Notes: generated from the letters alone by a model not told the origin. A stretch of 64,000 nt of DNA from an uncultured Gammaproteobacteria bacterium (GCA_964358085.1 CAYHNU010000001.1:11220-75219), one strand, 5' to 3'; shown: positions 10,414 through 61,077, numbered from the stretch's first letter. Translations and numbers: made by a program.

Positions 10414-12005
10414 AAAATTTTTTGCTGATTCTCATTCTCGTCCTGGCATCCGTTTTACGGCTTTATAAACTTTCCTCCTATCCCGCCGGCCTGAACGCCG
10501 ACGAAGCGGCTCTGGGCTACAACGCCTACTCACTCCTTCTCACCGGAAAGGATGAGCATGGTCATCCTTGGCCGGTCAATCTGGAATCTTTTGGCGACTT
10601 CAAACCTGCCGGTTACGCGTATCTGCTTATTCCCTTTATCAAAGTTTTCGGCCTGACGGAATTCGCCGTCCGTCTCCCCTCGGCCGTCTTTGGGATATTG
10701 GGAGTGTTATTCATTTATTTATTAACTAAGGAATTAATTAACAAGGACTGTGGATTGATTGCAGCTCTTATGCTTACAATTTCGCCGTGGCACCTGCACT
10801 TCTCCCGCGGCGGTTGGGAAGTCAATGTAGCCACCACTCTCATACTTATCGGCGCCTGGCTTTTTCTTAAAAAACGCTTTGCCCTTTGCACTTTGCCTTT
10901 TGCCCTTTCTATGTACACCTACCAGTCTGCCCGCCTCATCGTTCCCCTCATGGGATTGGGTCTATTTTTTCTCTACCGCCCCAAACGAATTTTTATGGCT
11001 TTTGTTTTGGGCTTCTTACTCCTAATCCCTCTAACCTATAACCTAGTCACTACCGACGCCGCCTCCCGTTTGTCCGGCGTGGGGCTTCTGGCCGATGAGG
11101 GGCCTCTCAACCGGGCCAAGGAATTGCGCGGCCAGCATCCCGCTTGGAGCTCTCCTTTGTCCAGAATTTTACACAACCGCCCGGTTTTATATTCCATCCA
11201 ATTTTTGAAAAACTACACCGACCATTTTTTCGGCGACTTTCTTTTTGTTAACGGCGACGTTATACCCCGTAACCGCGTCCCCGAAACCGGCCTGCTCTAT
11301 TTCACCGACTTTATTTTCTTAGGGTTAGGAGCGGTTTATCTACTACGAACTATGAACCATGAACCAAGAACTAAATTGGTTTGGTTATGGCTTGCCATCG
11401 CCCCAATTGCTGCAGCTCTCACTTTCCAAACCCCCCACGCCCTCCGCGCCCAAAACATGGTCATCCCACTGACAATTATTTTGTCATTTGGCATTTATTC
11501 ATTTTTTATTGATTTAAAATTAAAAATTAAAAATTTAAAATTGTTCCGTTTAGTTATTGGAGGTTTTGTGATAGTTTATCTTTGGCAGGTGGCGCGCTAC
11601 TTGCACGAATATTACGTCCATTATCCCCAAACTTATCCATACGCCTGGGAATACGGCTTTAAAGAACTGGTGGCTTACGTGGGATCGGTTCAGGACAAAT
11701 ATGAAAAGATTTTAGTCACCGACAAATATGATCAGCCATACATCATTTTTCTCTTTTATTCCAAATACCCGCCCCAAAACTTCCAGGGCCGCCATACGCT
11801 GACTTTCCGCGACAAATACAACTTTTCCACTGTTCGTGACTACGACAAATTTCATTTTTCCGCCACCCCCTGGACAAAAGTCAGCGACATCCATTCGTCC
11901 CTCATAGTAGCCGCCCCGGAAGATATTCCCGACGTGGGTGTTAATATAGTTAAAACCATTAATTTCCCAAATGACCAACCAGCGTTTAAAATAATTAGTA
12001 ATTAA
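10410..12005 (+). CDS. GT39/GT83-family (PMT/ArnT-like) glycosyltransferase, paralog 5
   Basis: 'ADEAALGYNAYSLLLTGKDEHG', 'FSRGGWEVNVATTLI', C-terminal 'QPYIIFLFYSKYPPQNFQ'. GTG start overlapping the upstream TGA (GTGA). Confidence 0.7.
   Translation: MKNFLLILILVLASVLRLYKLSSYPAGLNADEAALGYNAYSLLLTGKDEHGHPWPVNLESFGDFKPAGYAYLLIPFIKVFGLTEFAVRLPSAVFGILGVLFIYLLTKELINKDCGLIAALMLTISPWHLHFSRGGWEVNVATTLILIGAWLFLKKRFALCTLPFALSMYTYQSARLIVPLMGLGLFFLYRPKRIFMAFVLGFLLLIPLTYNLVTTDAASRLSGVGLLADEGPLNRAKELRGQHPAWSSPLSRILHNRPVLYSIQFLKNYTDHFFGDFLFVNGDVIPRNRVPETGLLYFTDFIFLGLGAVYLLRTMNHEPRTKLVWLWLAIAPIAAALTFQTPHALRAQNMVIPLTIILSFGIYSFFIDLKLKIKNLKLFRLVIGGFVIVYLWQVARYLHEYYVHYPQTYPYAWEYGFKELVAYVGSVQDKYEKILVTDKYDQPYIIFLFYSKYPPQNFQGRHTLTFRDKYNFSTVRDYDKFHFSATPWTKVSDIHSSLIVAAPEDIPDVGVNIVKTINFPNDQPAFKIISN
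10877..10910. repeat. Intragenic 7-bp tandem repeat (ctttgcN)x4-5 in PMT-like paralog 5
   Basis: ctttgcc, ctttgca, ctttgcc, ttttgcc, ctttct. Encodes FALCTLPFALS. Confidence 0.6.
11344..11376. repeat. Motif ctacgaactatgaaccatgaaccaagaact (encodes LRTMNHEPRT) within PMT-like paralog 5
   Basis: 24 of 27 nt identical to 60661-60687. Related copy at 13756-13785. Confidence 0.7.
11516..11543. repeat. 28-bp heptad element aaaatta-aaaatta-aaaattt-aaaattg, in frame within the PMT-like gene (encodes LKIKNLKL)
   Basis: Differs from the 42937-42964 copy only at the first base of each heptad. Same reading frame. Confidence 0.8.
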
Positions 12006-12006
12006 C

Positions 12007-12843
12007 ATGAAGGACCAAAAGAAATTAGCCATATTTGAAGGGAAAAAGATTCGCCGGCATTGGAATGGTGAACAAGAAAAATGGTATTTCTCTGTCGTGG
12101 ATGTAGTATCCGCTTTAACAGATAGCATCGATCCAAGAAACTATTGGAAGGTTCTTAAAAACAGGTTAAAGAATGAAGGAAGCGAGGTGGTTACAAAGTG
12201 TAACCAACTGAAAATGCAGGCTGCAGACGACAAATATTATCTTACCGATGTAGCCGATACAGAAGTAATGTTTCGTATTATTCAGTCTATTCCTTCTCCA
12301 AACGCCGAACCGTTTAAACTCTGGTTAGCCAGGGTTGGCTATGAGCGGATCGAGGAGTCTCAAGATCCAGAACTGGCCATTAACCGGGCTTTAAAAGCCT
12401 ACCTGAGAAAGGGTTATAGCAGAGATTGGATTAACCAACGTTTAAAAAGCATTGAAATTCGAAAAGCCCTGACGGATGAATGGGAAAACAGAGGAGTTAA
12501 GGCTGGCGACGAGTTTGCCATTCTGACTGATGATATTACCTTTGCTTGGGCGGGGATAACTACCAAGCGGTATAAAAATTACAAAGGGCTTAAGAAGGAA
12601 AACCTGCGAGACAATATGACTAATTTGGAATTGGTCTTGGATATGCTGGCCGAAACGGCTACCACCGAAATTTCCCAAAAGCGTAAATCGCAGACATTTA
12701 TGGGTAATCGGCGAGTTGCGAAAGAGGGTGGAGGCATAGCCGGCAATGCCAGAAAACAGATTGAGGCCAAGACTGGCAGGAGAATTGTGAGTAAATACAA
12801 GTTTATCCCTGCAAGTGCTCGAAAAACATTAAAAAACGTATGA
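12007..12843 (+). CDS. DinD-like / BRO-N domain protein (DNA-damage-inducible protein D family)
   Basis: 278 aa. N-terminal 'FEGKKIRRHWNGEQEKWYFSVVDVVSALTDS...NYWKVLKNRL' matches the BRO-N/DinD pattern. Central 'FAILTDDITFAWAGITTKRYKNYKGLKKENL...LAETATTE' matches my recollection of E. coli DinD. Starts 1 bp after the upstream stop, and its stop overlaps the next start (ATGA). Confidence 0.55.
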   Translation: MKDQKKLAIFEGKKIRRHWNGEQEKWYFSVVDVVSALTDSIDPRNYWKVLKNRLKNEGSEVVTKCNQLKMQAADDKYYLTDVADTEVMFRIIQSIPSPNAEPFKLWLARVGYERIEESQDPELAINRALKAYLRKGYSRDWINQRLKSIEIRKALTDEWENRGVKAGDEFAILTDDITFAWAGITTKRYKNYKGLKKENLRDNMTNLELVLDMLAETATTEISQKRKSQTFMGNRRVAKEGGGIAGNARKQIEAKTGRRIVSKYKFIPASARKTLKNV

Positions 12844-13619
12844 AAAAAATAAAACTCTCCGTAGTTCTGGCCACTCACAACGAGGAGGCCAATATTGTGA
12901 GATGTCTTGAGTCGGTCAAAAACATCGCCGACGAGATAGTTATCGCTGACGAACAATCTTCGGATAAAACAGTGAAGATTGCCAAAAAATTTGCAGCCAA
13001 AGTTATCTCTGTCCCACATAACGATAACTTTCATATCACTAAAAATATCGCTATTGCGTCAGCAACAGGGGACTGGATTCTCCAACTGGATGCCGACGAA
13101 GTCGTCTCCCCCGAACTGGCCCGGGAAATCCAATCCCACCTGAAAGGTGGCCGGAAGGACTCCTTTCAGGTGAACGGCTATTGGATGAACAGAAAAAATT
13201 GGTTTTTAAATCGGTTCTTAACCAAAGGCGGTCAATACCCGGATCCCACTCTCCGCTTCTACCGCCGGGGACTAGGACACCTTCCGGCCGCAAATGTCCA
13301 CGAACAAGCTACCGTCAATGGACCGGTCGGCCGCCTCAAGCACGATTTACTTCACTATCACCACACCACCTTTTCTAAATACATGGATGGATTCAACCGC
13401 TATTCTTCTTTCGCCGCTTCTCAAATGCAAGCTCGTCATGAACCCCTTAATCTACTTAATGCACTTAATCACTTAATCCCTCTCCCCCTATTTACTTTTC
13501 TGAATATCTATTTCCGTCATCTAGGTATGGTTGATGGATATTCCGGATTTGTTTTTGCCCTCTTTTCCGGCCTCACCCATGCCGTTGCCTACATTAAATA
13601 CTGGCAAAGGTCATTATGA
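12840..13619 (+). CDS. GT2 glycosyltransferase, polyprenyl-phosphate sugar synthase-like (ArnC/GtrB-like, C-terminal TM helices)
   Basis: 'KLSVVLATHNEEANIVRCLESV', 'QLDADE' DxD-type motif, C-terminal hydrophobic pair 'LIPLPLFTFLNIYF...FVFALFSGLTHAVAYI'. Confidence 0.6.
   Translation: MKKIKLSVVLATHNEEANIVRCLESVKNIADEIVIADEQSSDKTVKIAKKFAAKVISVPHNDNFHITKNIAIASATGDWILQLDADEVVSPELAREIQSHLKGGRKDSFQVNGYWMNRKNWFLNRFLTKGGQYPDPTLRFYRRGLGHLPAANVHEQATVNGPVGRLKHDLLHYHHTTFSKYMDGFNRYSSFAASQMQARHEPLNLLNALNHLIPLPLFTFLNIYFRHLGMVDGYSGFVFALFSGLTHAVAYIKYWQRSL
13446..13477. repeat. Intragenic tandem repeat (cttaatNNN)x4 in the GT2 gene (encodes LNLLNALNHL)
   Basis: cttaat recurs at 13446, 13455, 13464 and 13472. 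Confidence 0.6.
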
Positions 13620-14605
13620 TCAAAGTCGGTTTTATTACATCTCCCCTGCACGACGCCAATGCTGCCCGCGGCGTCGGCTCCTACACCCGCCGCCTCCTAG
13701 AAAGACTCAAAGTTCAAAGTTCAAGGTTCAATATTGAGATTTTAGAAATTAAAAATGACCATGAACTACAAACTATGAACTATGAACTCGTCCACTACCC
13801 ATACTTCGACTTATTTCGGCATACCTTGCCAATTTTTAATAAATCCAAAATTGTAGTCACCCTTCACGATGTGATACCGTTGGAATTTCCTGATCACTAC
13901 CCCCCCGGTCTCCGCGGCAGGCTTAATCTGCAGTTGCAAAAATTGGCCCTGGCCAACGTAGAACGTGTCATTACCGTTTCCTATGCTTCAGTACAAGCAA
14001 TACGAAAGTATCTGCTTGTACCTCACGCTAAACTCAAACTGGTTTACGAAGCCGCCGACCCCATGTTTAAAAAGATTTCTAAACCCAAAAACAAATATCA
14101 TCTGCCCAAAAAATTCGTTCTCTACGTCGGAGATGTGAATTGGAATAAAAATATACCCAATTTAGTTAAAGCTTGTGAACAAATAAATTACCCATTGGTA
14201 ATAGTGGGTAAACAAGCAACTGAAGTAGAAAAACTGGACCTAAACCACGCTGAACTGCGGCATTTACAAGGAGTAGATTGGTCGGCCGTTATCCGCTCGG
14301 GTTTTGTGGCAGACGAAGATTTGGTACATATCTACAATTTGGCCACCGTTTACTGCCAGCCGTCCTTATCCGAAGGCTTTGGCCTGCCTGTCGTGGAAGC
14401 CCTGGCCTGCGGCACCCCTGTAGCCTGCAGCAATACTTCATCCTTGCCGGAAATAGCGGAGGATAACGCCACATATTTCAATCCCTATGACGTCGATGAT
14501 ATGTCCCAAGCTATAATTAACGCTAAGCCTCCACAAAGCAAGCCAATGTTTTCATGGGAGGAAACTGCCAAATTGACTCTGATGGTTTATCGGGAAATAT
14601 TATGA
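13616..14605 (+). CDS. GT4 (GT-B fold) glycosyltransferase
   Basis: C-terminal 'QPSLSEGFGLPVVEALACGTPVACSNTSSLPEIAED' is the typical GT4 E-x7-E region. ATGA overlap at both ends. N-terminal region carries repeat insertions (13708-13785). Confidence 0.65.
   Translation: MIKVGFITSPLHDANAARGVGSYTRRLLERLKVQSSRFNIEILEIKNDHELQTMNYELVHYPYFDLFRHTLPIFNKSKIVVTLHDVIPLEFPDHYPPGLRGRLNLQLQKLALANVERVITVSYASVQAIRKYLLVPHAKLKLVYEAADPMFKKISKPKNKYHLPKKFVLYVGDVNWNKNIPNLVKACEQINYPLVIVGKQATEVEKLDLNHAELRHLQGVDWSAVIRSGFVADEDLVHIYNLATVYCQPSLSEGFGLPVVEALACGTPVACSNTSSLPEIAEDNATYFNPYDVDDMSQAIINAKPPQSKPMFSWEETAKLTLMVYREIL
13708..13785. repeat. Composite repeat block in the GT4 N-terminus: (caaagtt)x3, then tta gaa att aaa aat core, then cat gaa cta caa act atg aac tat gaa ctc
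   Basis: Direct read. Encodes KVQSSRFNIEILEIKNDHELQTMNYEL. Confidence 0.7.
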
Positions 14606-41337: not shown

Positions 41338-42158
41338 AGCAGCTAATAGCAAAGATTTGCGACAATCTTTGTTTTGATAAAATATTTTTACTTACTGAGA
41401 ATTTGTCTCTTTTGGAGAAAGTAAAGTATACATTCAGAAAATATTTAACAATAATATTTGGACGGAAAGAAATAGTATATTTAGGTAAGGTTTTCAAATT
41501 TGATAACTCCTTTACTCCAGTGCTTTTGCAAAGTTATCCCCATGAGATTGGTACATTGGATAGAGAAATAAATTTGAATACGATTCATTCGGTTTTGGAT
41601 ATAGGGGCAAATATAGGTCAGTGGTCATTCACATTGAAGTCTTTATTTTCTCATCTGAACGTAATATCACTTGAGCCTAACCCTAAAGTTTTTCCCCTGT
41701 TGCGCGAGAATGCAAAGGGTTTTTCTAAGTGGAAATGTTACAATTTTGGGGTAGGTGATGGGGGTAGACACAAGTACATATATTATTCAGGGAATGGCTC
41801 TTCAGAAGCTAGTATTTATAACAAAATTAGCACCAACAATAAGAAAAAAGATAAAATAGTACCAGTACGCCTAGTAGTTTTAAATAATGGAAAAATAGGT
41901 GGAACTCAAATACCCAATTCGTTTGATTTAGTAAAAATTGACACTGAAGGGTCTGAGCTTGAAGTGTTACATTCAATTAGTAAACTTCATTTTAAGTACT
42001 TGGAAGTAGAAGTATCACTTAAACGAAATAGAGGAGTAACTGTAAAGGATGTCAAAAACTTTTTTAAAAGGCATACTCGTTTTCAGCCAAAATTATTACA
42101 TTTAGATATATTTAATAGTAATTCACCTGTAGCTGATGCAATTTTTTCATTAACATGA
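41334..42158 (+). CDS. FkbM-family SAM-dependent methyltransferase
   Basis: 'VLDIGANIGQWSFTLKSLFSHLNVISLEPNPKVF', 'KIDTEGSELEVL'. ATGA overlaps at both ends. Confidence 0.6.
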   Translation: MKQLIAKICDNLCFDKIFLLTENLSLLEKVKYTFRKYLTIIFGRKEIVYLGKVFKFDNSFTPVLLQSYPHEIGTLDREINLNTIHSVLDIGANIGQWSFTLKSLFSHLNVISLEPNPKVFPLLRENAKGFSKWKCYNFGVGDGGRHKYIYYSGNGSSEASIYNKISTNNKKKDKIVPVRLVVLNNGKIGGTQIPNSFDLVKIDTEGSELEVLHSISKLHFKYLEVEVSLKRNRGVTVKDVKNFFKRHTRFQPKLLHLDIFNSNSPVADAIFSLT

Positions 42159-43363
42159 AGATAAATAAGATTTATTTTTGGTCAATGGCTTCCCATGGCG
42201 CTGGAATTTCTGGAGGCGACAGAATCTTTATGGAATTTGTCAAAAGATGGAGGACAAAGCATCCAGTTACGGTTGTAACTTGGGCAGAAGGGGAGTCCAT
42301 GATGGCTAGAAACAACCTTCTTGAATCCGCAAATGTTTCCTTTCAACGTCTATTGGTTCCAAAAATTATTCGCTTTAATTTTTTATTGTGCTATCTATAT
42401 AGAATAATTATTGGTATTTTCACTGCACTAACCATGCGTCTTGATAGCCCATTAGAACTGTATTTATATTCCTCTTCCGAGTTTTGGATGGACTCACTAC
42501 CTTCTTTTATTTTAAAACTTCGTTACCCCACTATCAATTGGATTGCAACCTGGTACCAAACCGCTCCAAATCCTCTTGTTGGTTTTTCAAATGGCCGTTA
42601 TCGCATAACGGCTTTATTACTATGGCTTTCTCAATTACCAATTAAGCCATTAATTGGTAATTTTGCCGATGTTGTTTTGGTAAACAACGATACCGAAAAA
42701 AAGATATTCCCAAAATCTCAAACAATTGTAGTTTTGGGCGCAGTTGACACCAAACTGATTGAAACCTATATTGCTAAAAATCCTAAAACAAAAAAGAAGT
42801 ATGCAGCTGTCTTTCAAGGTAGATTTCATCCCCAAAAAGGAGTAGTGGAACTCATAGATGTATGGAAAAAAGTGGTTGAGAAAATCCCGGATGCCAAATT
42901 GGCCATGATAGGGGATGGCCCGCTTATGGAAAGTGTGAAATTAGAAATTAGAAATTTGAAATTGGAGAATAATGTTAAATTGTTAGGATATGTTTTTGAC
43001 GGCGATGAGAAATACAAACTATTTGCTCAAAGCAAAATTGTAGTTCACCCGGCCTTTTATGATTCTGGGGGTATGGCCTCGGCTGAAGCTATGGCCTTTG
43101 GTTTACCTTGCATAGGCTTTAATTTACCCGCTTATGAATCGTATTATCCCAAAGGTATGATTAAAATCCCCATCGGTGACTTGAATTCCTTTGCTGAAAC
43201 GATAGTTGACCTACTTAAAAATAATTCCAAACGAAATCTCGTGGGGAATCAGGCGGGAAAATTTATTCGTGGGTCTTATTCTTGGGACTATCGTGCTCGA
43301 GAGATTTTACGGCAAATAGTTGGAACGACAAATCCGGAAAGAAAAAAAGTAGAATCTCAGTAA
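42155..43363 (+). CDS. GT4 glycosyltransferase
   Basis: 'FQGRFHPQKGVVELIDVWKKV', 'HPAFYDSGGMASAEAMAFGLPCIGFNLPAY'. Contains the 28-bp (gaaattN)x4 element at 42937-42964. Confidence 0.6.
   Translation: MKINKIYFWSMASHGAGISGGDRIFMEFVKRWRTKHPVTVVTWAEGESMMARNNLLESANVSFQRLLVPKIIRFNFLLCYLYRIIIGIFTALTMRLDSPLELYLYSSSEFWMDSLPSFILKLRYPTINWIATWYQTAPNPLVGFSNGRYRITALLLWLSQLPIKPLIGNFADVVLVNNDTEKKIFPKSQTIVVLGAVDTKLIETYIAKNPKTKKKYAAVFQGRFHPQKGVVELIDVWKKVVEKIPDAKLAMIGDGPLMESVKLEIRNLKLENNVKLLGYVFDGDEKYKLFAQSKIVVHPAFYDSGGMASAEAMAFGLPCIGFNLPAYESYYPKGMIKIPIGDLNSFAETIVDLLKNNSKRNLVGNQAGKFIRGSYSWDYRAREILRQIVGTTNPERKKVESQ
42937..42964. repeat. 28-bp heptad element gaaatta-gaaatta-gaaattt-gaaattg, in frame within the GT4 gene (encodes LEIRNLKL)
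   Basis: Direct read of the sequence. Near-identical copy at 11516-11543. Confidence 0.8.
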
Positions 43364-46223: not shown

Positions 46224-48449
46224 ATGAGAAAAGTAATTATTATTCTAATAATATTGGCACTCGGTATTACCCCATTACTTACACAGGGTAATTTATATTT
46301 TGTAGGAGGAGACGACATGAGACTTTACTACATGTATCCCAAGGAATACATCCAAAATTTACTTTTGAATATAGTAACCGACAATTCAATTAGTGGAGGC
46401 AATATGGGCTACTATCCTGCCACCCATCCGGTTCCTCTAGTTGCATTAATATGGTTGGTAAAGACGCTAGTGCCTGCTAATACGCAGTTTGTTATGTATG
46501 GAATAAATTGGTCATTGTCCTTCCTCTTCTTCTACTTATTAATGGGTTTCTGGATATCAGATAAGTCTCGATTCAGTTTTTTTGCCAAAGTGGCTTCATG
46601 TCTGATTTATATATTTTCCCCATTTCTGTTCATGACCTTCTATAAACATCAAATGATCGTATTATTTTTAATAACCGCTTTCCCGGGGGTATTATATTTT
46701 TTTATCAAAAGTGTTCGACAACGTAATCCCCTATACGTTTTTTCGGCTTGTTTAATAATCTCTATCTTTAGTACTAATCTAAGCTCAATTCCGTGGATGC
46801 TTCCAATGTTTATTACAAGTACCCCATTGTTGTTTTGGGAGTTTTATAAGGACAAAAAGACTTTCTTTTGGCATGCCATTATTTTTGTAATTTGCTACTT
46901 TTTATTAAATATTTCCTGGATATTCCATTTAGTTTACTTGACTATCTATAATACTGGTTTAGTAGATGGTTTGAGTAGCTATCTTACGCCAGAGTTTTTG
47001 AAAGCAAATATTGCTGGTATTTTGGGGACATCCCGCCAATACAGTCCACTTAATGGTGTAGTTAGTCAACTGGTTATTGGGCTTACAAAAAACCTAACTA
47101 TAGTTTCATATGTCAATTTAATATTTATTTTCTTGATTGTTGCAGCTGGAGTTTTTATCAAAAAAGAGAGAAACAATATTTTAATTTCAGGATTCATTTT
47201 GGGTTTATTATCGCTACTTATTTCATGGATCATGTTAGCTCCCAATATTCAGACTTGGGGGCCTGATGCGTTCATCTGGTTATCTCTTAGAGTGCCCTTC
47301 TTTACCATGTTTAGAAATATGTCTGATAAATTTGCCTTACCAATGGCCTTTTTTTATGCTCTAACTTTGGGATCAAGCTTGGTAATTTTGGCCAATAGGT
47401 TTGCCAACAAGGCCTTACGATTGATTGTGCGTTGTTCGCTAAGTGTTGTAATTTTGATAAATATTTATCCACTACTGCAAAATCGATCTGAACATGTTGG
47501 GGTGGCAGCCAAGATGTCAGGTAGTTTTAATGATGATTTTAATGCCTTGGCTGATTATTTATTGACGTTAAAGAACCCATCAAGAATATTGTGGTTGCCA
47601 CTAAACTTTCCATCTTTTATTAATATTGAAGACAAGTATAATCCCGGTCATTATTACTCTGGCCCTTCACCCTTGCGTTTTTTAAGCAATCGTCAAGATT
47701 ATGCTGGACAATTTAGTTTTATTTCTTCAAATGACTTTGGAATTGCTGATAAGATTTTTCCTATGATAGATGCCAAAGATTTTAAAAGTTTTGGCAAACT
47801 AATTCAATTACGAAACGCGAGATATATCATTTTAGATAAGCAACAGCTTCCGGAGACTATGAAGCCATATCTTTATAACCACTACAGCATTGAATATGGG
47901 AAGTTAAAGATGCAAACAGAAGAATTTGTTAATGAATTCATTGGAAAGAAGCTTCAAGAATTTGGCACACGCTATGTTTTATATGAGATTAATCCGAAAT
48001 ATAATAATGATCGAATATATTTAACTGATAGTTACGAAATTTTTCCTAAAAACTTGCCAAATATTGAATACGAAAAAGTATCTGATTCTTTATACAATAT
48101 TAGCCTGAAAAGTATTAGTAAATCACGGAAATTAGTGTTTTTGGACTCTTACTATAAAGATTGGACACTTTATGTAAAAGGAGATTCAGAGACAAAGGCA
48201 TACCAAAAAGGTAAAAACGTTCCTGTCCAAGGATTTGCCAACGGTTGGGAAATTAATTTAGATGAGATTATAAAGAATTTTTCCAAGGGTTACTATACTA
48301 CCAACATGGACGGGTCAATAAATATTAAAATGACTCTCTACTTCGAACCCAGCAAATATAACAAGCCTACGCGTATTATTAGCGCGATGACCTTTGTAAT
48401 ACTTGGTTTGTCTCAATTGATTTTACTTGCAAAAAGAAACAATGTTTAA
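46224..48449 (+). CDS. Giant polytopic membrane protein, paralog 1 of 3 (GT-C-like; YfhO/AftD-type architecture hypothesis)
   Basis: 741 aa. 'LYFVGGDDMRLYYMYPKEY', 'FRNMSDKFALPMAFFYAL', C-terminal 'VQGFANGWEINLDEI'. More than 12 TM segments plus a C-terminal soluble domain. Confidence 0.55.
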   Translation: MRKVIIILIILALGITPLLTQGNLYFVGGDDMRLYYMYPKEYIQNLLLNIVTDNSISGGNMGYYPATHPVPLVALIWLVKTLVPANTQFVMYGINWSLSFLFFYLLMGFWISDKSRFSFFAKVASCLIYIFSPFLFMTFYKHQMIVLFLITAFPGVLYFFIKSVRQRNPLYVFSACLIISIFSTNLSSIPWMLPMFITSTPLLFWEFYKDKKTFFWHAIIFVICYFLLNISWIFHLVYLTIYNTGLVDGLSSYLTPEFLKANIAGILGTSRQYSPLNGVVSQLVIGLTKNLTIVSYVNLIFIFLIVAAGVFIKKERNNILISGFILGLLSLLISWIMLAPNIQTWGPDAFIWLSLRVPFFTMFRNMSDKFALPMAFFYALTLGSSLVILANRFANKALRLIVRCSLSVVILINIYPLLQNRSEHVGVAAKMSGSFNDDFNALADYLLTLKNPSRILWLPLNFPSFINIEDKYNPGHYYSGPSPLRFLSNRQDYAGQFSFISSNDFGIADKIFPMIDAKDFKSFGKLIQLRNARYIILDKQQLPETMKPYLYNHYSIEYGKLKMQTEEFVNEFIGKKLQEFGTRYVLYEINPKYNNDRIYLTDSYEIFPKNLPNIEYEKVSDSLYNISLKSISKSRKLVFLDSYYKDWTLYVKGDSETKAYQKGKNVPVQGFANGWEINLDEIIKNFSKGYYTTNMDGSINIKMTLYFEPSKYNKPTRIISAMTFVILGLSQLILLAKRNNV

Positions 48450-51400
48450 TTTCGTATTTTTTGTCAGGCTATTGGCAATTTGGGGAACGATTTTAGTTGT
48501 TTTTACTACTTTTTCTGTATACCAAGATATTAAACAGAATAAGCTGCTGAATTATACCGATACATATTCATCTTCTTCGGTGGATATTAAATCAGAATAT
48601 AAATCTTCTGGTATTTTAAAGTACGTATTTAAATTTTTGGCGCATGATGACTATCTTGGAACAATGACGTTTAAGTATTTCCGTCTTCGGGAAAATCAAG
48701 GACAGGTAATTTTTAGAATTAAAGAAATCTCTCAAAAAGATTGGTATGCTGAAAACCGTTATGATTTCTCTTACTTCGTCAATGATGATATTTATCAATT
48801 TGGTTTTCCTGAAATAAAAAATTCCAAAGGCAAACAGTTTATTGTTGAATTTGAAATTGTTTCCCAGACATTAATGAAAGATCAGAGATCACTAGACCTA
48901 AAGACAGCACCAATTTTAACCGTTAAATACGTATTTCCGCGCGATACTTACTACAAATCAGTTGGGAAGCTGTCAACAATTGTTTTAAACAGATCCATTT
49001 CAGTATTGACCGAGATGGATTATGTTAAGGTGTTTATTTCTTCGTTCCTAATTGCCATGTTTTTCCTTATTGCCCTTAGTCGTCAAGAAAATGAAACCGG
49101 GCCAAAAATAATAATTCGACAAAAGGTTTTACAAAAAAACGTACAAATTTTGAGTAATTGGACAAATAAAATTAATCCCTTTATTGTCCCTGGAGTTGTT
49201 TTGATAATCTTGTCGTTAGGATTTGTCTCTGGTAATTATGTATTGGCTGAACGAATGTCAGTTCAATTGTGGGCTACCTTATTTGGAAGTGTTGTTTTTT
49301 ACATTCTTCAGGTAACTATCTTTAATAGGCTGTCAAATTTGATAAAACATATTAATACAATTAGTGCTAATACTCTATCGATTTTGGACGACTTAATGAA
49401 CAAAAAACTTTTGTTATTAATGGGGACACTGTTTGTAATAGTATCGGGTATGTCTGCCACATATTATTTAGGTGGAGATGATTCCCGTTTATTTTACTTA
49501 TACCCTCAAGAATTTTTGGACAACTATATATCTAAAATTGTGTCCGATACTGGAGTTAGTCAACTTACAAACCTTATTCCTCCAACATCATTATCGGCCT
49601 TTACGATAATTATGATAGGCCTAAGAAACATATTGTATCAGTTCAATCTTCAGGCGTTGTTAAATTCGGCAAATCTTGTAGGTGGATTTTTTGCCTTTTA
49701 TTATTTATTAAATTACTTATTGAAACCAACAGATAAATACGAACGCGTAATTTGCGTCTTGGCTTCGTTTATGTATGTTTTTTCTATTTTTAATTTTTAT
49801 ACTCTATTAAATTCCAGATTGATAGCGGAATATTTAATAAGCTTGTTTCCACTATCTTTATATTTAGGTATTAAGGCAATACGTGAAGGAAAATTTTATT
49901 TATTTATTTTGGCTACACTTATTTGGTCGGCCTTTAGTTTCCTTTCCGTCACTCTTCCTTTATCTGGCGCAGTTTTGATTACTTCTATTCCTTTACTTAT
50001 TTTCGCGACATGGAAACACAAAATCAGGATAATTGCATATTTAGTGGGAGCAGGTCTACTGTTTGCTGTTCTAAATTTACATTGGTTTATGTTTATCCCG
50101 TATACAAACTTTTCTAAAAACATACCCGGTTCGTATACACCAAGCCTTACTTCTGTGGAATTCCGCAAGCAAAATGAGATTGGTATCAGAACAGTTTCCG
50201 ACATAAATAATAGTTTCTTTCCATTGCTAAATTCGTATCATCGAAAAATTCAGATAAATTTTAATTGGCCCCATTTACCTATATATTTATCTTGGTATTC
50301 AAAAATCTTAATACTTGGATATTTATTGATAGCTGTAGTCATCATAGCCGGCATTAGGATAGAAAAGAATAAACAAAGAAAAGGTATTTATGTTGCCTTA
50401 GTGATTAATTTTGTTTTAGCCGTTTATTTTTTTACGGTCAACATTGGTCCTTGGGGAGTTGATGTATTCTTGTGGTTGTCTAATCATATTCCTGGGTTTG
50501 TAATTTTCCGCAACATGTTTGATAAATTCGCATATGCAATGGCATTCCAATGGGCATTCTTAATTTCAGTCAGCTTAATTGTCATTGTTAAGTCCATTAA
50601 AAAAACTATGTTTAAAGAATATTTGTTATTTGCAATTTTTTTGATTGCAATAATCAATGCCAAACCCTTCCTTTTGAGAGAATTTGTAAATCTGCCGTAC
50701 TGGACTAGTAAATATAGCCATGATGGGATTACAGCTTTTAATAGTGATTATTTAGATTTGCTAAAATTTGTAAAAAATCAAGATGGCGTTGGTCGTTATT
50801 TATCACTACCTTTGTTAACTGGCAATAGTGTGATTGTAGAGGGAGAAAAACAAAAGGACCATTATTACGCTGGTGTATCACCACTTTTATTATTAACTGG
50901 TAAGAACGATATGTCTGGACTAATGAGCTTTGGTGAACATTCAAATAAAGTTTTTAAATGGCTTACTAAAAAAGATTACGATAGTTTTGGACAATTATTA
51001 CAACAATATAACGTTAAATATATAATTTTAAGTAACTCAACGTCTGAAGATCTTCAGCCAAGTTTCATGTTTTCTGATGGTTTGTTTTACTTGCAGACTA
51101 AAAGTTTTTATCAAAGCATAATTGGTCAGAAAGTAAGAGATTTTGGATCCAGGTACAGTTTATTTGAAATAAATTCTAAATATTTAAGTGAAAAGATATA
51201 TATTACCGATAGCCCTGGATCGTTTGTAAATCAAGAGGCCAATTTGTCTTTTAAAAAACTTGCTACTCATGAATATGAAATCGAAGTCTCGGATCTTAGA
51301 AAACAACTTTCACTGGTATTCTTAGACCCTTATCTTAAAGAATGGCAATTGCTCACACCGAGTGGAAAAGAACTGTCCACTGAATATCATCACCCTGTTT

Positions 51401-51630
51401 TTGGCTACGCCAATTTATGGGAAATTAATCCTCAAATTATTCAGATTGACTTTCCTAAGTCAGATTATCAAATAATGTCAGATGGAAGTTTGAAATTAAA
51501 GTTAAAGCTATACTTTCAACCATATAATTATTTTTGGACAGTAAATATTATATCTGCATCGGCATATGCGTTAGGAATAGCTTATGTATTGTTATCTATA
51601 TTCATTAAATTTATTAAAAAACAGAAATGA
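48442..51630 (+). CDS. Giant polytopic membrane protein, paralog 2 of 3 (extra N-terminal soluble domain)
   Basis: About 1062 aa. 'YYLGGDDSRLFYLYPQEF', 'FRNMFDKFAYAMAFQWAF', C-terminal 'VFGYANLWEINPQI'. ATG at 48442 (TTG alternative at 48427). Very AT-rich. Confidence 0.55.
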   Translation: MFNFVFFVRLLAIWGTILVVFTTFSVYQDIKQNKLLNYTDTYSSSSVDIKSEYKSSGILKYVFKFLAHDDYLGTMTFKYFRLRENQGQVIFRIKEISQKDWYAENRYDFSYFVNDDIYQFGFPEIKNSKGKQFIVEFEIVSQTLMKDQRSLDLKTAPILTVKYVFPRDTYYKSVGKLSTIVLNRSISVLTEMDYVKVFISSFLIAMFFLIALSRQENETGPKIIIRQKVLQKNVQILSNWTNKINPFIVPGVVLIILSLGFVSGNYVLAERMSVQLWATLFGSVVFYILQVTIFNRLSNLIKHINTISANTLSILDDLMNKKLLLLMGTLFVIVSGMSATYYLGGDDSRLFYLYPQEFLDNYISKIVSDTGVSQLTNLIPPTSLSAFTIIMIGLRNILYQFNLQALLNSANLVGGFFAFYYLLNYLLKPTDKYERVICVLASFMYVFSIFNFYTLLNSRLIAEYLISLFPLSLYLGIKAIREGKFYLFILATLIWSAFSFLSVTLPLSGAVLITSIPLLIFATWKHKIRIIAYLVGAGLLFAVLNLHWFMFIPYTNFSKNIPGSYTPSLTSVEFRKQNEIGIRTVSDINNSFFPLLNSYHRKIQINFNWPHLPIYLSWYSKILILGYLLIAVVIIAGIRIEKNKQRKGIYVALVINFVLAVYFFTVNIGPWGVDVFLWLSNHIPGFVIFRNMFDKFAYAMAFQWAFLISVSLIVIVKSIKKTMFKEYLLFAIFLIAIINAKPFLLREFVNLPYWTSKYSHDGITAFNSDYLDLLKFVKNQDGVGRYLSLPLLTGNSVIVEGEKQKDHYYAGVSPLLLLTGKNDMSGLMSFGEHSNKVFKWLTKKDYDSFGQLLQQYNVKYIILSNSTSEDLQPSFMFSDGLFYLQTKSFYQSIIGQKVRDFGSRYSLFEINSKYLSEKIYITDSPGSFVNQEANLSFKKLATHEYEIEVSDLRKQLSLVFLDPYLKEWQLLTPSGKELSTEYHHPVFGYANLWEINPQIIQIDFPKSDYQIMSDGSLKLKLKLYFQPYNYFWTVNIISASAYALGIAYVLLSIFIKFIKKQK

Positions 51631-55971: not shown

Positions 55972-57240
55972 ATGAACCAAAAACTCTTGGCCATATTCCA
56001 AACCCAAACATTGCGGCAATCGATTATCACAATTGTATCCACTTTTACCACCGCCGGCTTGGGCGCGGTATTTTATCTCCTTCTGGCCAGGATTATAGGT
56101 GCCCATGAATATGGATTATTCTCGGTAGTAGTTTCAATCTTGACCATTATTGTAACCTTTACTGACGTGGGTATGGGACAGGGGTTAGTTAAATTTGTAG
56201 CGGAAAATAGCGGCAGCGATAAATATCAACCTTATGTCAAAATTGCCCTGTTCACCAAAATTGCTATCGGCCTGGTGGTCAGTTTGGTTCTGTGGGCGTT
56301 TGCGAAGTCCCTGGCGGTTTCTCTCCTGCGCCAGCCGGAGGTAGCCAAGCTCCTGTCTATCACCGGATGGGGAGTTCTATCGATCATGCTTTTTAGTCTT
56401 TCCATATGTGTTTTTCAGGGACTGCAGAAGTTTATGCTCTGGGGCGGGCTGCAGGTTGGAGCTAATTTTTTCCGACTGCTTCTCCTCGGTTTTCTTCTGC
56501 TCGTCGCGGTGAAAATTGATTCAGTTTGGATGTTGGTCCTGTTTATTGCCGCTCCGCTTTCCGGATTTTTACTTTCCTGGTTTTGGCTGCCGGTCAGTAT
56601 TCTTAAAGCCAAAGTTACTTCCGTTCACTGGCACAATTTTTGGAATTTTAACAAGTGGACTGCCGCGCTTGGTATCACGGCCACTCTTGCTAGCCGCCTG
56701 GATACTCTACTCACCGCCCGATTTCTAACTCTATCTCAAACCGGTGTTTACGCCATGGCCATCACCATGGTGGCTTTTTTGCCCCAGCTGTCTTCGGCCA
56801 TCGGAGCCGTGACCGCGCCTAAATTTGCTTCATTTTCTGACTCCGATCACTCTCAAAAATATCTTGTCAAATCCACTCTTTTTTCGTTTGGTATTAGTGT
56901 AGGTGTGGCCCTAGCCATGATTCCGGCGGCCATGCTTGTCATCCGGTTTACCGGTCGGGATTTTTCTGCCTCTTTTACACCTTTCTTAATTCTGCTTCTG
57001 TCACTGGCAATATTCACTTCGCTTAACCCCGTCCGCGACAGCATTTTATATTTTTACAAACGCCCCCAGTTCTTCTTTTGGGCCAATCTCGCTCAAGCCG
57101 CTATCATTGTTGGGGCCGGGTTTTTGCTCATTCCCCGTTTCGGGGTCATTGGCACATCGTTGGCAGTGTTAATTAGCCACGTGTTTTTCGCTATCGCCAG
57201 TTGGTGGGAATATGAAAATTGTCGCGCACACGCTAGTTAA
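55972..57240 (+). CDS. Polysaccharide/oligosaccharide flippase, MOP superfamily (Wzx-like)
   Basis: About 422 aa, 12-14 TM. 'SIITIVSTFTTAGLGAVFYLLLARIIGAHEYGLFSVVVSI' is a typical Polysacc_synt N-terminus. ATG at 55972. Confidence 0.6.
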   Translation: MNQKLLAIFQTQTLRQSIITIVSTFTTAGLGAVFYLLLARIIGAHEYGLFSVVVSILTIIVTFTDVGMGQGLVKFVAENSGSDKYQPYVKIALFTKIAIGLVVSLVLWAFAKSLAVSLLRQPEVAKLLSITGWGVLSIMLFSLSICVFQGLQKFMLWGGLQVGANFFRLLLLGFLLLVAVKIDSVWMLVLFIAAPLSGFLLSWFWLPVSILKAKVTSVHWHNFWNFNKWTAALGITATLASRLDTLLTARFLTLSQTGVYAMAITMVAFLPQLSSAIGAVTAPKFASFSDSDHSQKYLVKSTLFSFGISVGVALAMIPAAMLVIRFTGRDFSASFTPFLILLLSLAIFTSLNPVRDSILYFYKRPQFFFWANLAQAAIIVGAGFLLIPRFGVIGTSLAVLISHVFFAIASWWEYENCRAHAS

Positions 57241-58021
57241 AAACGAACAAAGATGGGTGTGGTATGCAATAACCTCGGTTATTGATTTTGTAGATGAAAT
57301 TAAAGTATGGGATACAGGATCAAGCGATCAAACATTAGAGGTGGTTAAATCGATTGAGTCGCCTAAACTGACCATTAGGCAAACTTTGACTAAAAACCCA
57401 AAAGCCATAACGGCAATTAGACAAAAGATGCTTGAGGAAACAACAGGGGGGTGGGTTTTGATTTTGGACGGAGACGAAATTTGGACCGAAGGAGCCATTA
57501 GAGAGTCTCGTAAACTTATTGAGGGCGAAAAAAGTCTGCGATATTTGGCCAATAGGTACATTAATTTTATGGGTGACGTTTATCACACTCAAGATCCAAA
57601 AGCGGAAATGTACAATATTGCGGGTTTTAAAGGAAATGTAAATTTGAGGCTGGTCAATTTAGACGCCTACAAAAAAGTAAGTTTTGAGGGTGACTTAAGC
57701 AATGAGTGGATGGCTGACGAAAACGGGAATAAATTGCAAGATGAATCCATGGGGGTAGCTATAGTTGAGGAACCTTATCTTCATGCCACCAGACTTCCCA
57801 GATCGGGAAGTGAAACAGGTGATGAAATAACGTTTATGCGAAAAACGAAATATAAATGTGATTTGGGAACACGGTTTCCCAAAAATTTTATATATCCTAA
57901 AGTATTTTATTTCCCCAAACCAATTAATGTTCCCAGTCCATGGGCGAGGAGAAGTATTACTTTTGTAGCAAACGCAGCTTGGCAAACGCCCCTTCGCGCC
58001 ATAAAAAACTATGTCCTATAA
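57212..58021 (+). CDS. GT2-like glycosyltransferase
   Basis: 'MKIVAHTLVKNEQRWV', 'WDTGSSDQT', 'ILDGDE'. 269 aa. Confidence 0.5.
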   Translation: MKIVAHTLVKNEQRWVWYAITSVIDFVDEIKVWDTGSSDQTLEVVKSIESPKLTIRQTLTKNPKAITAIRQKMLEETTGGWVLILDGDEIWTEGAIRESRKLIEGEKSLRYLANRYINFMGDVYHTQDPKAEMYNIAGFKGNVNLRLVNLDAYKKVSFEGDLSNEWMADENGNKLQDESMGVAIVEEPYLHATRLPRSGSETGDEITFMRKTKYKCDLGTRFPKNFIYPKVFYFPKPINVPSPWARRSITFVANAAWQTPLRAIKNYVL

Positions 58022-58775
58022 CCGTCGTAAATACTATGCCCTAGCTGCAAAAGCCAGTAAGCAGATAGGGGAGCATCCTGGCCTTTTGTATTTACAGAAA
58101 ATTGCCGGCCAGTCATCTAAGGTGTTAGATGTAGGTTGTGGCGAAGGGTCACGTTTAGTAACTTTGTTGCCTCCAGGCCAGTTTGCTTGGGGAGTGGATA
58201 TTGACAAATACGCTATCAATCTTGCCAAAAAACAGTATCCGGATCAGCATTTTCAAATCTATTCAGGAGAAAAATTGCCTTATAAATCAAATACCTTTGA
58301 TCTAGTTTATTCTGCTTTTGTTCTCGAGCATGTCCAAATTCCGGCAAATTTATTAAATGAAATGATCCGCGTCTGCCAGCCCAGAGGGAGCGTCATCCTT
58401 CTTTGTCCGAATTTCGGTGCTCCGAACAGAAGATCCCCAAATTCAATTCAAAATTCCATTTCAAAGCTCCTCACAGGTTTTATTAACGATTTTTTCAGTA
58501 CTTCTATTTTCCGTTGGGAAAAGGTCCAACCTAAACCGGTTTACAATCTGCCGGACGACGACACAACAATTGAACCTTATTTATTATCGCTCATTCGTTA
58601 TTTCCAAAGCAAAAAATTAACAATTAATTTAGCATCGTCTTTATGGAATCTGGAAGTACCAAGCCTTAATCCTCGAAAAATAATTGTCAAAATACTAGGC
58701 CAGTTAGGCATTTTTCCATTTAAATACTGGGGTCCTCAAATTTTTGTTTCAGCCATTAAAACCGTATCTGACTAA
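58011..58775 (+). CDS. Class I SAM-dependent methyltransferase
   Basis: '[16 protein letters not shown]', '[14 protein letters not shown]', '[13 protein letters not shown]'. Confidence 0.6.
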
Positions 58776-59453
58776 ACACCACACCGTCCACAGGCCGTCT
58801 TTCCAATTGATCTTTTTTCCTTCAGCATAGCTTCTTCCGGAGTAACTAATTCCCACTTCATAAATCCGTACTCCCATTCGAGCGACTTTAATTGTAAATT
58901 CCGGCTCAACGCCAAACCTTTTTTCCTGCAAGTTCAACTTATTAGCCACGTCTTTAGTAAAAGCCTTGTAGCAAGTCTCAATATCCGTCAGATTCAAATT
59001 TGTCAGACAATTGGACAGTAGCGTGATAAATTTATTACCCACATAGTGCCAGAAATATAACACCCGATGCGGCTGGCCTCCGGTAAACCTGGATCCAAAC
59101 ACCACGTCGGCTTTCTTGGCCAAAATCGGCGCCAGCAATAATTCGTATTCATCAGGATCGTATTCCAAATCTGCATCCTGAATTATAAACGTGTCCCCGG
59201 AAGCTATTTTTAGCGCATCTCTCACTGCCGCCCCCTTCCCCTCGTTCTTGGATTTATTAATCGTTTTTAATTTTTTGGATCTTGAACTTTGCTCGCGAAG
59301 CGCGACGGAGTCGATCTTGAACCTTGTCTTATCGGTAGATCCATCATTCACCACAATTATTTCTTTAACTAATTTGTTAGATTGCACTTTTCGAAGTACT
59401 CGGGCAATTGTCTTTTCCTCGTTGTACGCTGGTATAATTACAGTTAGTTTCAC
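58749..59453 (-). CDS. GT2 polyprenyl-phosphate sugar synthase (DPM1/GtrB-like)
   Basis: '[18 protein letters not shown]', '[10 protein letters not shown]', '[11 protein letters not shown]', '[10 protein letters not shown]'. 234 aa soluble. Confidence 0.65.
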
Positions 59454-59468
59454 AAATCAGATTATACA

Positions 59469-60464
59469 ATGAAGATCGCCATTTTGAGCTTTTATTCTGG
59501 TAATCTCTATCGTGGCGTTGAGACTTATGTCCACGAGCTTAGTAATTGTTTGGTTAATTTGGGAGAACAAGTGGTTGTGTATCAAAATGGTCAGAAGCAT
59601 AAGAATTCAAAATACACGACGGTTTCTATTGGATTACCAATTGACTGGTCTCGGCTTGGTGGGGGGTGGACACCGTGGGATTATTGGAAATTGTTAGTTA
59701 AAAACTTTACGAAGATCTCCTTGCAAAAAATTGATCCAGACACTGAGATAATAATACCAACAAATGGAATGTGGCAGAGCTTGTATAGCCGTTTGTGGGC
59801 ATGGAGGAATAAAAAAAAGATGGTGATTTCCGGACAATCGGGGCCTGGATTAGACGATAGAATAAATTTATGGACTTTTCCGGATATGTTTGTTGGAATG
59901 ACGGATTATCAATGCCAATGGGCCAAAAAAGCTAATCCATTTGTAAAAATTGTAAAAATTCCCAATGGAGTGGATTTAGATAAATTTACTCCCGCCACAG
60001 AACCTATCAAACTCAACCTAAAAAAGCCTATCATCCTAAATGTGGGCGTGGTGACACCATTTAAACGCCAAGATCTTTTGCTTGATGCGGCTAAAAAAAT
60101 TAAAGCCTCAGTCTTATTAGTTGGAAAGGGAGGAACTATGGATTTTGTTCATTCAGATATGCCGAAAGTATATACGGCATGCGATTTATTTTCTTATCCT
60201 ACGTCACCTCAAGAATCTTTCGGCATCGCCATGCTGGAAGCCATGGCCAGCGGACTGGCTGTGGTAGCTACCGACGACCCTATTCGTCGGGAAATAGTAG
60301 GGGAAGCAGGCTTGTTTGTCGACCCAACAAATGCCACAGCTTACGCCCAAGCTTTAAAAAAGGCATTGCATATCAGCTGGGGCGATAAGCCCCGCCGGCA
60401 GGCCGAAAAGTTTTCCTGGGACAAAATTGCTAAACTTTATGATCTCTGTTTCCATAATTGCTAA
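59469..60464 (+). CDS. GT4 glycosyltransferase
   Basis: 'YPTSPQESFGIAMLEAMASGLAVVATDDPIRREIVGEAG'. Confidence 0.6.
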   Translation: MKIAILSFYSGNLYRGVETYVHELSNCLVNLGEQVVVYQNGQKHKNSKYTTVSIGLPIDWSRLGGGWTPWDYWKLLVKNFTKISLQKIDPDTEIIIPTNGMWQSLYSRLWAWRNKKKMVISGQSGPGLDDRINLWTFPDMFVGMTDYQCQWAKKANPFVKIVKIPNGVDLDKFTPATEPIKLNLKKPIILNVGVVTPFKRQDLLLDAAKKIKASVLLVGKGGTMDFVHSDMPKVYTACDLFSYPTSPQESFGIAMLEAMASGLAVVATDDPIRREIVGEAGLFVDPTNATAYAQALKKALHISWGDKPRRQAEKFSWDKIAKLYDLCFHNC

Positions 60465-61077
60465 AGATAAATCCGTTATCCTTCCGAGTTGTCTGGAAAG
60501 CGTTCGGCAGGTGTTTGACGACGTGGTTATCGTTACCAACGCCGACCATAAATTTATAAATTACGCTGACCAAAAAAATTACGCAGCAAGCAAATGCAAA
60601 TACGACTGGGTTTTGTCTTTAGACGCGGACGAAGAGCTTTCTCCAGAGCTTATCCACGAACTACGAACCATGAACCATGAACTATACGCCGCCTTTAAAA
60701 TCCCCAGATTAAATATCATTTTTGGCCGTCCCATGTTCCACACTAACTGGGAACCCTCTGCCGATACCCACATCTGGTTATATGACAAGACCAAGTGCAA
60801 ATGGGAGGGCAATGTTCACGAAGAAGTCGTCGCCAATGGCCCGGTGGGAACTTTACGGGCTCGCAAAATTCATCACAGTTACCAGACCGTTGAAGAATTT
60901 ATGGACAAAATGAACAATTACACCTCCCGCGAAACTAAAATAGTCAATCCGCTTTTTGATTTTCTCCGTCGCTACATCTGGCACAAGGGATTTTTGGACG
61001 GTTGGCACGGGTTATTCTTAAGTTATTTGATGGCTGTTTATCATACAGTGACATGGGTAAAGAAAAATTCTTCCTGA
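60439..61077 (+). CDS. GT2-like glycosyltransferase (short, LPS-core-type family 2 architecture)
   Basis: 'MISVSIIAKDKSVILPSCLESV', 'LSLDADEELSPEL'. ATG at 60439 overlaps the upstream gene by 26 bp. Contains the ctacgaaccatgaaccatgaacta motif. Confidence 0.5.
   Translation: MISVSIIAKDKSVILPSCLESVRQVFDDVVIVTNADHKFINYADQKNYAASKCKYDWVLSLDADEELSPELIHELRTMNHELYAAFKIPRLNIIFGRPMFHTNWEPSADTHIWLYDKTKCKWEGNVHEEVVANGPVGTLRARKIHHSYQTVEEFMDKMNNYTSRETKIVNPLFDFLRRYIWHKGFLDGWHGLFLSYLMAVYHTVTWVKKNSS
60661..60687. repeat. Motif ctacgaaccatgaaccatgaactatac (encodes LRTMNHELY) within the GT2-like gene
   Basis: Direct read. Shares ctacgaacNatgaaccatgaac with 11344-11376. Confidence 0.7.

Follow-up and report, generated by a model that had tools for sequence, protein, structure and literature searches.

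A peptide shared by three unrelated glycosyltransferase genes of a putative Microgenomates bacterium is the translation of an in-frame heptanucleotide repeat

Three unrelated glycosyltransferase genes in a 64,000-nucleotide (nt) stretch of Hainich groundwater DNA (0.1 µm filter fraction; CAYHNU010000001.1:11220-75219 of assembly GCA_964358085.1, deposited as an uncultured Gammaproteobacteria bacterium; the whole stretch is hereafter the window) encode a common L-R/Q-T-M-N-H/Y-E-L peptide from in-frame copies of one nucleotide motif. A preliminary description, made from the sequence alone, took the motif for part of a fragmented composite element or for a hotspot of repeat-mediated recombination between genes. 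Our analysis indicates that the motif is an in-frame (YATGAAC)3-4.6 array, probably one of several genome-specific heptamer families at tolerant glycosyltransferase positions of a Microgenomates lineage. This reading is carried by (i) the tandem-array nature of the copies, (ii) substitutions that repair the stop codons such arrays would encode, (iii) the lack of insertions at orthologous sites, (iv) the presence of different heptamer units in register at those sites, (v) codons that track the local unit, (vi) a lineage-specific excess of period-7 repeats, and (vii) the stability of arrays between strains.

The motif is a head-to-tail heptamer array

With up to three mismatches allowed, CTACGAACNATGAACYATGAAC matched the window five times (some matches being unit-shifted overlaps) at three loci, namely 11343-11364 and 60661-60682 with no mismatch and 13766-13787 with one, versus no match in 100 dinucleotide-preserving shuffles; the claim of a recurrent, nonrandom motif was thereby confirmed. 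An independent repeat search returned a three-member family (11345-11373; 13761-13789, 76%; 60656-60684, 93%). The copies in the PMT-like gene (array A) and the GT2 gene (array C) are identical at 27 of 29 nt and at 21 of 22 across the core, so that the 24 of 27 nt first reported for this pair was about right; the sites themselves had been correctly located, with positions that were 1-4 nt off. What had been missed is that the motif, whose unit is YATGAAC (equivalently CYATGAA), is a head-to-tail heptamer array and not a 22-nt word, and that a weaker fourth copy (copy D) lies in a PMT paralog. Tandem Repeats Finder (TRF) called period 7 with 4.0-4.6 copies at all three main sites (11342, 13761, and 60654), each of which holds the three or more copies of a heptamer simple sequence repeat (SSR) by TRF and lattice alignment. 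Strong period-7 runs numbered three in the window versus none in shuffles.

Array A translates to LLRTMNHEPRT (residues 311-321 of the PMT-like protein), array B to HELQTMNYEL (residues 49-58 of the GT4 protein, directly upstream of a conserved HYP), and array C to HELRTMNHEL (residues 77-86 of the GT2 protein). These are the peptides originally described, and the Pfam assignments (PMT_2, GT4, and GT2) bear out that the enzymes are unrelated. As to whether the motifs lie at loops or domain boundaries, a check proposed at the outset, AlphaFold places array A at the end of a predicted helix (294-313), a loop (314-318), and the start of the next helix (319-337; mean pLDDT 72.8), and array C in the C-terminal half of helix 73-81 plus loop 82-88 (mean pLDDT 90.9). 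In all three of these unrelated sugar-transferase genes, the YATGAAC arrays occupy tolerant helix-end or turn positions.

The shared peptide is a by-product of the repeat

Three heptamers make seven codons, and a perfect YATGAAC array in any frame cycles through L-*-T-M-N-H/Y-E, with a TGA stop every 21 nt. Among the window's four copies, six of seven internal mismatches fall within the would-be TGA codon, which now reads CGA, AGA, CAA, or TCA; in copy D, the sole mismatch is of this kind (TCA). When 11 distinct YATGAAC-family arrays from the window and related genomes were counted together, deviations were found at 25 of 55 stop-phase positions versus 38 of 316 elsewhere (odds ratio 6.1, p = 5e-8). 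Because deviations concentrate at the would-be TGA, the "conserved" L-R-T-M-N-H-E-L peptide results from translating a DNA repeat whose stop codon has been repaired, i.e., a by-product of a unit length by which 3 x 7 nt equal seven codons and of the replacement of TGA under selection. A peptide motif common to unrelated proteins can hence be purely the by-product of a DNA repeat; in a heptamer array read in frame, the product is a 7-residue cycle, and deviations mark the stop codons that were removed.

A conserved functional peptide common to the three enzymes would be suggested by the identical LLRTMNHEPRTK in PMT orthologues of just 65-67% overall identity (P0146, P0169) and by HEL[LR]TMNYE in GT2 orthologues at 59% identity. 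However, the peptide at the site differs in most orthologues, the similarity lies in the nucleotides, with codon choices fixed and the Arg codon following the local heptamer, and the enzymes are unrelated in fold and in structural context. No conservation of the peptide independent of codons was found among the orthologues, where the peptide varies with the DNA unit and the heptamer lattice fixes codon choice. We rejected a functional peptide on these grounds and hold it to be exceedingly improbable; the same peptide at conserved positions in all orthologues, which the preliminary description had named as the mark of a genuine functional motif, is not what the orthologues display.

Orthologous sites carry different units in register, without insertion

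At the GT2 site, compared across 120 proteins and 11 DNA loci (related loci are denoted by L numbers), no indel was found among the 120 orthologues, which range from 81% down to ~41% identity. Peptides at the site include ELKTLDYK, ELRTVNQE, ELKTINYE, and ELLTMNYE among orthologues and EEIKNLDFS in distant homologues. The DNA is NATNAAC-periodic in L003 (80%), L004 (76%), and L009 (65%), with CGA or CAA at the stop position; in L011 and L012 (61%), it belongs instead to the other of the two motif families, GAAATTR (GAAATTG..GAAATTAGAAATTGG), and no periodicity was found in L005-L008, L010, or the distant homologues.

The corresponding PMT loop measures 45 nt (sometimes 48) in array-bearing genes versus 39 nt in most others, a difference of at most 6 nt, and many PMT orthologues have no array there. 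Across genomes, this loop holds at least 12 different units in register (Table 1), with lag-7 match fractions of 0.6-0.8 in array-bearing loops versus 0.15-0.4 in non-array loops. None of 79 related loci is out of frame, and the paralogs are in frame as well. For the conserved Arg of "LLRT", the genomes use CGA, AGA, AGG, or CGC, in every case one substitution away from the local unit, and units without an in-frame stop form near-perfect arrays. From these sequence comparisons, the PMT loop pattern appears to be one of DNA-level homogenization under protein-level constraint.

In the GT4 gene, the array B site of L106 is CAYGAACTACGAACCATGAACTATGAACT, the same array as in the window, while elsewhere this site carries GAAATTA, TGAAAAT, AAAATTA, CACAACT, GAYAACT, GATTTGS, or ATCTACG arrays. 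The 13707 site upstream holds (AGGCTCA)3 in L101 and (ATGCTCA/AAGCTCA)n in L106. The copy D site is also array-bearing in L083 and L089.

These alignments bear on the proposal that the three genes received insertions of pieces of a composite mobile element, one of the miniature inverted-repeat transposable element or small-dispersed-repeat type. The two motif families originally described do recur together in the gene cluster, with tracts of the "first family" adjacent to array B in the GT4 gene (13742-13759) and 169 bp from array A in the PMT gene (11512-11542), and a Bro-N gene is present within the cluster. Against an element stand (i) the lack of any insertion-sized indel, or presence/absence polymorphism of that size, relative to orthologues or paralogs, the array flanks being ordinary conserved coding sequence and the array sites of orthologous genes holding other heptamer units; (ii) the lack of target duplications or of terminal repeats, inverted or otherwise, at the PMT loop; and (iii) the independent variation of the two families among genomes at each site. 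The families are independent heptamer arrays and not halves of one composite, since orthologues carry either family or other units at a given site. Insertion of a mobile element was rejected on the paralog and orthologue alignments, and we give this explanation almost no credence.

Period 7 is in excess, and units recur within genomes

A TRF census of 1.25 Mb of de-duplicated Microgenomates loci, centered on array-bearing glycosyltransferase genes, yielded 213 period-7 repeats versus a shuffled mean of 45 (4.7x) and 64 period-14 repeats versus 9.3 (6.9x), with periods 8, 10, 11, and 13 at 1.1-1.5x over shuffles. Loci from outside the candidate phyla radiation (CPR; 0.8 Mb, same query) gave 54 period-7 repeats versus 36.7 in shuffles (1.5-fold). 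Period 7 is in excess over neighboring periods and shuffles in the Microgenomates loci, and the window alone shows an excess too.

Array pairs within one locus match at 6 or more of 7 positions in 11.6% of cases versus 4.5% when permuted, a level reached in 0 of 2000 permutations. The same heptamer unit was found at many dispersed loci of one genome, within the ~10-20 kb per genome examined: the window holds four YATGAAC arrays and four GAAATTA/ATTAAAA-type tracts, L004 two (ACTTAGC)n arrays, and L142 two (GGTTACG)n arrays. PMT-site and GT4-site loops of one genome share at least 9 nt in 4 of 33 genomes (permutation p ~0.02), drawn from two clades only. The YAT[G/C]AAC family has 31 matches across loci, 25 of them in locus (+) orientation, and these include further nonorthologous sites such as the equivalent post-DXD position of a paralogous GT2 in L085, L098, and L103.

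Two further loci deserve separate mention. In L113, perfect ATTTCAA arrays lie in three genes (4729-4759 and 6356-6384, ~4 units each; 8598-8614, ~2.4 units), constituting the clearest genome-specific dispersed heptamer family. The Microgenomates-like L017 (CAZAUT010000008.1) has more than 10 heptamer arrays in 17 kb (e.g., at 398-993, 2742-2824, and 13732-13776), including (TAAACAA)11.9 and (AGTATCA)6.4, which are much longer than those of the window.

Arrays are stable between strains and change between lineages

Near-identical strain pairs differ by no indel and no substitution in 1,473 array bases, for which 5.5 substitutions would be expected from pair-specific rates, and the copy-number instability of long SSRs was found neither between strains nor between orthologues. 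On a rough neighbor-joining (NJ) tree of PMT proteins built without the loop, in which some loci are perhaps paralogs and not orthologues, the window groups with CTACTCA and CCAAAGA loops, and CYATGAA is found again in lineages far from it, those of L098/L106 and L090. The lack of strain-pair differences and the mosaic of units on the tree together suggest that arrays are stable over short timescales and replaced wholesale over long ones. This scatter of unit types weakens the idea that the YATGAAC loop arose once, long ago, and was then passed on vertically.

Such stability is hard to reconcile with phase-variable contingency loci, in which one-heptamer slippage would switch surface-glycosylation genes. 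The unit length here is not a multiple of three, the arrays lie inside surface-glycan genes with redundant paralogs, and known contingency loci likewise have differing units at one site between strains. The nearest counterpart is the (AAGACTC)n repeat of NeuO, the phase-variable O-acetyltransferase of the Escherichia coli K1 capsule, also a heptanucleotide coding repeat in a surface-glycan-modifying enzyme that is translated as a 7-residue cycle; NeuO, however, has 3-53 perfect units at its 5' end, frequent out-of-frame alleles (65.6% of genomes), and measurable switching (PMC13001214). By contrast, the arrays described here are internal, consist of just 3-4.6 imperfect units, and have neither length variation nor out-of-frame alleles, all 79 orthologous PMT loops being in frame and of constant length. 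Phase variation was rejected given that no frameshifted loci, length variation, or strain-level differences were found, among assemblies that are metagenomic consensus sequences in which rare OFF variants would stay hidden; we consider it very unlikely.

Possible origins of the arrays

The explanation that we favor is one of heptamer arrays that would arise, and be homogenized, when replication misaligns or switches template in a 7-nt register, a bias put forward earlier for bacterial heptamer SSRs (PMC4692102), with tracts of ~30 nt occasionally copied between arrays within one genome. Such copying would account for the CGA stop-fix and the offset that unrelated genes have in common, for the unit families within genomes, and for the mosaic distribution of units. 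Surviving products would be those that keep frame and length, are free of stops, and lie in positions tolerated by the protein; neither the peptide nor the repeat itself would need a function.

Several points weigh against this explanation. First, the recurrence of one unit with its CGA stop-fix in unrelated genes, together with the mosaic of units, fits one-step tract copying better than gradual local homogenization; PMT unit types are not monophyletic on the NJ tree, for which the reservations given above hold. Second, plain slippage predicts copy-number polymorphism, and none was seen, array loops being constant at 45 or 48 nt. Third, once homologues of the three host genes are set aside, the excess of period 7 is smaller (66 period-7 repeats versus ~40 each for periods 8 and 10). 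Fourth, the explanation does not account for why the period is 7.

The first of these points leads to copy-and-paste of a ~28-30 nt module, CAYGAACTACRAACYATGAACYATGAACT, carried from gene to gene through template switching or ectopic short-tract gene conversion, in which case the three sites would hold copies of a single tract and not arrays formed locally and independently. This explanation overlaps with the favored one, from which it differs in the process taken to dominate, and we regard it as a serious possibility, short of probable. The same CGA (or its derivative CAA), offset, and length recur in GT2 (window, L003, L004, and L009) and GT4 (window and L106), array B was found only in genomes that also have array A, and unit sharing within genomes is significant; the near-identity of arrays A and C and the nonmonophyly of PMT units point the same way, and close-strain stability suggests episodic replacement and not continuous slippage. 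The repeat-mediated exchange between genes that the preliminary description envisaged finds some support here, in the stop-fix and offset common to unrelated genes, the unit sharing, and the mosaic units. Yet module copying leaves unexplained the heptamer periodicity of the tracts and the near-perfect arrays of many other units, PMT/GT4 sharing is confined to the 4 of 33 genomes noted above, and neither donor-recipient polarity nor conversion-tract boundaries could be shown.

More speculatively, and with considerable doubt, Microgenomates may possess an active, hitherto undescribed tract-rewriting process that overwrites tolerant positions of surface-glycosylation enzymes with genome-specific heptamer arrays, homogenized both within an array and between dispersed loci, with gene length kept. 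If true, 30-nt coding tracts would be undergoing concerted evolution, and loop diversity in surface enzymes might be generated in this way.

Alternatively, period 7 could be kept as a selected nucleic-acid signal whose actual unit is irrelevant, e.g., one that binds protein, structures the mRNA, or pauses translation where membrane proteins have helix-turn-helix junctions. Periodicity and register do persist at a site while the unit changes, arrays have fewer substitutions than their flanks between close strains, and the two GT4 arrays are able to form a hairpin with each other. We nevertheless find this explanation unlikely: with no unit conserved, a specific binding site is improbable, many orthologues have no array, and we know of no such nucleic-acid function for heptamer periodicity. 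As for the hairpin itself, (AAGTTCA)n at 13707-13731 approximates the reverse complement of array B (13761-13788), with a minimum free energy of -17.2 kcal/mol (z = -2.07). This complementarity was not found in the L106 orthologue, and the pairing is probably incidental. A structured RNA was rejected, given no Rfam match in the window and a marginal hairpin that is not conserved in L106.

Relation to known heptamer repeats

An excess of heptameric SSRs in bacteria, with a polymerase-slippage hypothesis and a preference for ~4 units, is presented in PMC4692102 (citing Mrazek et al. 2007), where over-represented heptamers are exemplified by Xanthomonas GGGAATC and Nostoc GGGGAYT (summarizing Mrazek, Guo & Shah 2007). 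Reports of the excess have come chiefly from intergenic DNA of Xanthomonas and cyanobacteria. The arrays reported here resemble these SSRs, as characterized in PMC4692102, in their tandem 7-nt units, period-7 excess over neighboring periods, ~4 units, and genus- or genome-specific dispersed families. The SSRs of that account are mostly intergenic, under-represented in coding sequence, G-rich (quadruplex-forming), and present in 2-26 copies (PMC4692102), in contrast to our arrays, which are in genes, in frame, A/T-rich, of constant length, and from Patescibacteria, and which recur at the same codon positions of orthologues with different units. They are a new, coding-region form of the known bacterial heptamer-SSR excess; our literature search found no paper linking heptanucleotide repeats to Patescibacteria.

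Elhai et al. in 2008 reportedly associated small dispersed repeats with heptamer arrays in Nostoc. Together with the cyanobacterial short tandemly repeated repetitive (STRR) heptamer families (Mazel et al. 1990, as cited in PMC4692102), these share with our arrays several heptamer families per genome at many loci and tracts of 21-30 nt that look as if copied between sites. STRRs, however, are long, largely intergenic, and from another phylum, none of which holds for the window arrays, which have 3-5 units and, with one exception, lie inside open reading frames (ORFs). Unlike the small dispersed repeats of Nostoc, which are insertions, the tracts described here are superimposed on existing codons, with no insertion to be detected.

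Short heptanucleotide arrays contribute heavily to the turnover of sequence at tolerant glycosyltransferase positions in at least one CPR lineage. Coding arrays, with their constraints of frame, stop codons, and length and their many orthologous comparisons, offer a tractable system for studying how repeats originate and spread (slippage versus tract copying), as well as for testing whether repeats contribute to surface variation in episymbiotic, uncultured bacteria.

Host genes, source lineage, and other repeats of the window

Table 1. Heptamer arrays and host genes of the window, and units at the PMT loop (array A site) in the window and related loci
Feature	Position	Strand	Sequence or context
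Array A, (CYATGAA) x4.6	11342..11373	+	CTACGAA CTATGAA CCATGAA CCAAGAA CTA; in frame, PMT-like 10410..12005
Array B	13760..13789	+	CATGAAC TACAAAC TATGAAC TATGAAC T; in frame, GT4 13616..14605
Array C	60654..60684	+	CCACGAA CTACGAA CCATGAA CCATGAA CTA; in frame, GT2 60427..61077
Copy D (weaker)	8451..8471	+	CTATCAA CTATGAA CTAT; PMT paralog 7362..8864, LLSTMNYL
(TTAGAAA) x4.3, "first family"	8257..8286	+	PMT paralog 7362..8864, loop aligning with array A (FRNYKLESRNS)
(CTTTGCC) x4.6	10877..10908	+	PMT 10410..12005, FALCTLPFALS, aa 156-166
(ATTAAAA) x4.4	11512..11542	+	PMT 10410..12005, DLKLKIKNLKL, aa 368-378
(AAGTTCA) x3.6	13707-13731	+	GT4 N-terminal region, upstream of array B
TTAGAAA TTAAAAA (TTAGAAATTAAAAA at 13742), "first family"	13742-13759	+	GT4, directly upstream of array B
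(GAAATTA) x3.9	42937..42963	+	second GT4 gene 42155..43363, KLEIRNLKLE
AACCTAN tracts	11021-11049 and 63945-63973		mutual identity 86%
Host gene 1, PMT_2/GT39-like membrane glycosyltransferase (Pfam)	10410..12005	+	one of four tandem paralogs
Host gene 2, GT4 glycosyltransferase (Pfam)	13616..14605	+	
Host gene 3, GT2 glycosyltransferase (Pfam)	60427..61077	+	paralog of 12840..13619
PMT loop, window			CTACGAA CTATGAA CCATGAA CCAAGAA
PMT loop, L098/L106			CTAAGAA CTATGAA CCATGAA CCACGAA
PMT loop, L090-92			CTACGAA CTTCGAA CTATGAA CCACGAA
PMT loop, L096			CTAAGGA CCAAAGA CCAAAGA CCAAAGA
PMT loop, L085/L088			CTCCGCA CTACTCA CTACTCA CYACACA
PMT loop, L089			CTTCGCA CTGCGCA CCTAGCA CCTAGCA
PMT loop, other units			(TTCAAAN)n in L097; (CTAYAAG)n in L111; (TTAAAAT)n in L145
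PMT loop, other units			(ATCTACN)n in L136/139/150/151; perfect (AAATCAA)4 in L134; (TCYAACA)n in L115

The window is part of a 111-kb contig, and the host genes lie in a region densely packed with glycosyltransferase genes, among them four PMT-like paralogs in tandem (4271, 7362, 8830, and 10410). Homologues are annotated as Patescibacteria, Candidatus Amesbacteria, or Microgenomates, and on this basis the host lineage appears to be Microgenomates (CPR) and Amesbacteria-like, i.e., Patescibacteria near Ca. Amesbacteria. A cyanobacterial origin was rejected in view of these homologues and because HIP1 (GCGATCGC) was not found in the window. A Bro-N domain protein, of a type typical of phage or antirepressor-like proteins, is encoded at 12007-12843, between the PMT paralogs and the GT2/GT4 genes. 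The GC content of the window is 40.8%, dropping from ~0.48 (1-8 kb) to 0.315 (48-52 kb) around two large ORFs (46224..48449 and 48427..51630), and this heterogeneity may reflect horizontally acquired genes there.

The "first motif family" of the preliminary description likewise consists of heptamer arrays, (GAAATTA/ATTAAAA)n, which begin at 8257, 11512, 13742, and 42937. All window arrays lie within ORFs, in frame and with 3-5 units, save a tract at 63943 that could be assigned to no complete ORF, its sequence running off the window end. The resemblance of this tract to the one at 11021 may stem from paralogy or from a further dispersed array. The loop that holds the 11512 array is hypervariable, with indels among orthologues. 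The (CTTTGCC) array falls within a predicted transmembrane helix (modeled at 157-170), in which case heptamer arrays would not be strictly confined to loops.

A 16-nt tandem repeat, ATTAGGTCAATTAGAA x2.2, was also found at 6750-6784, in a PTPS_related membrane gene (5857..7407; SLGQLEIRSIRN, residue ~298), and the same TTAGGTCAATTAG... motif fills the GT4 site-B loop in four related genomes (L083, L084, L087, and L096). The ATTAGGTCAATTAGAA repeat appears to be a further dispersed repeat family with a composite 9+7 unit.

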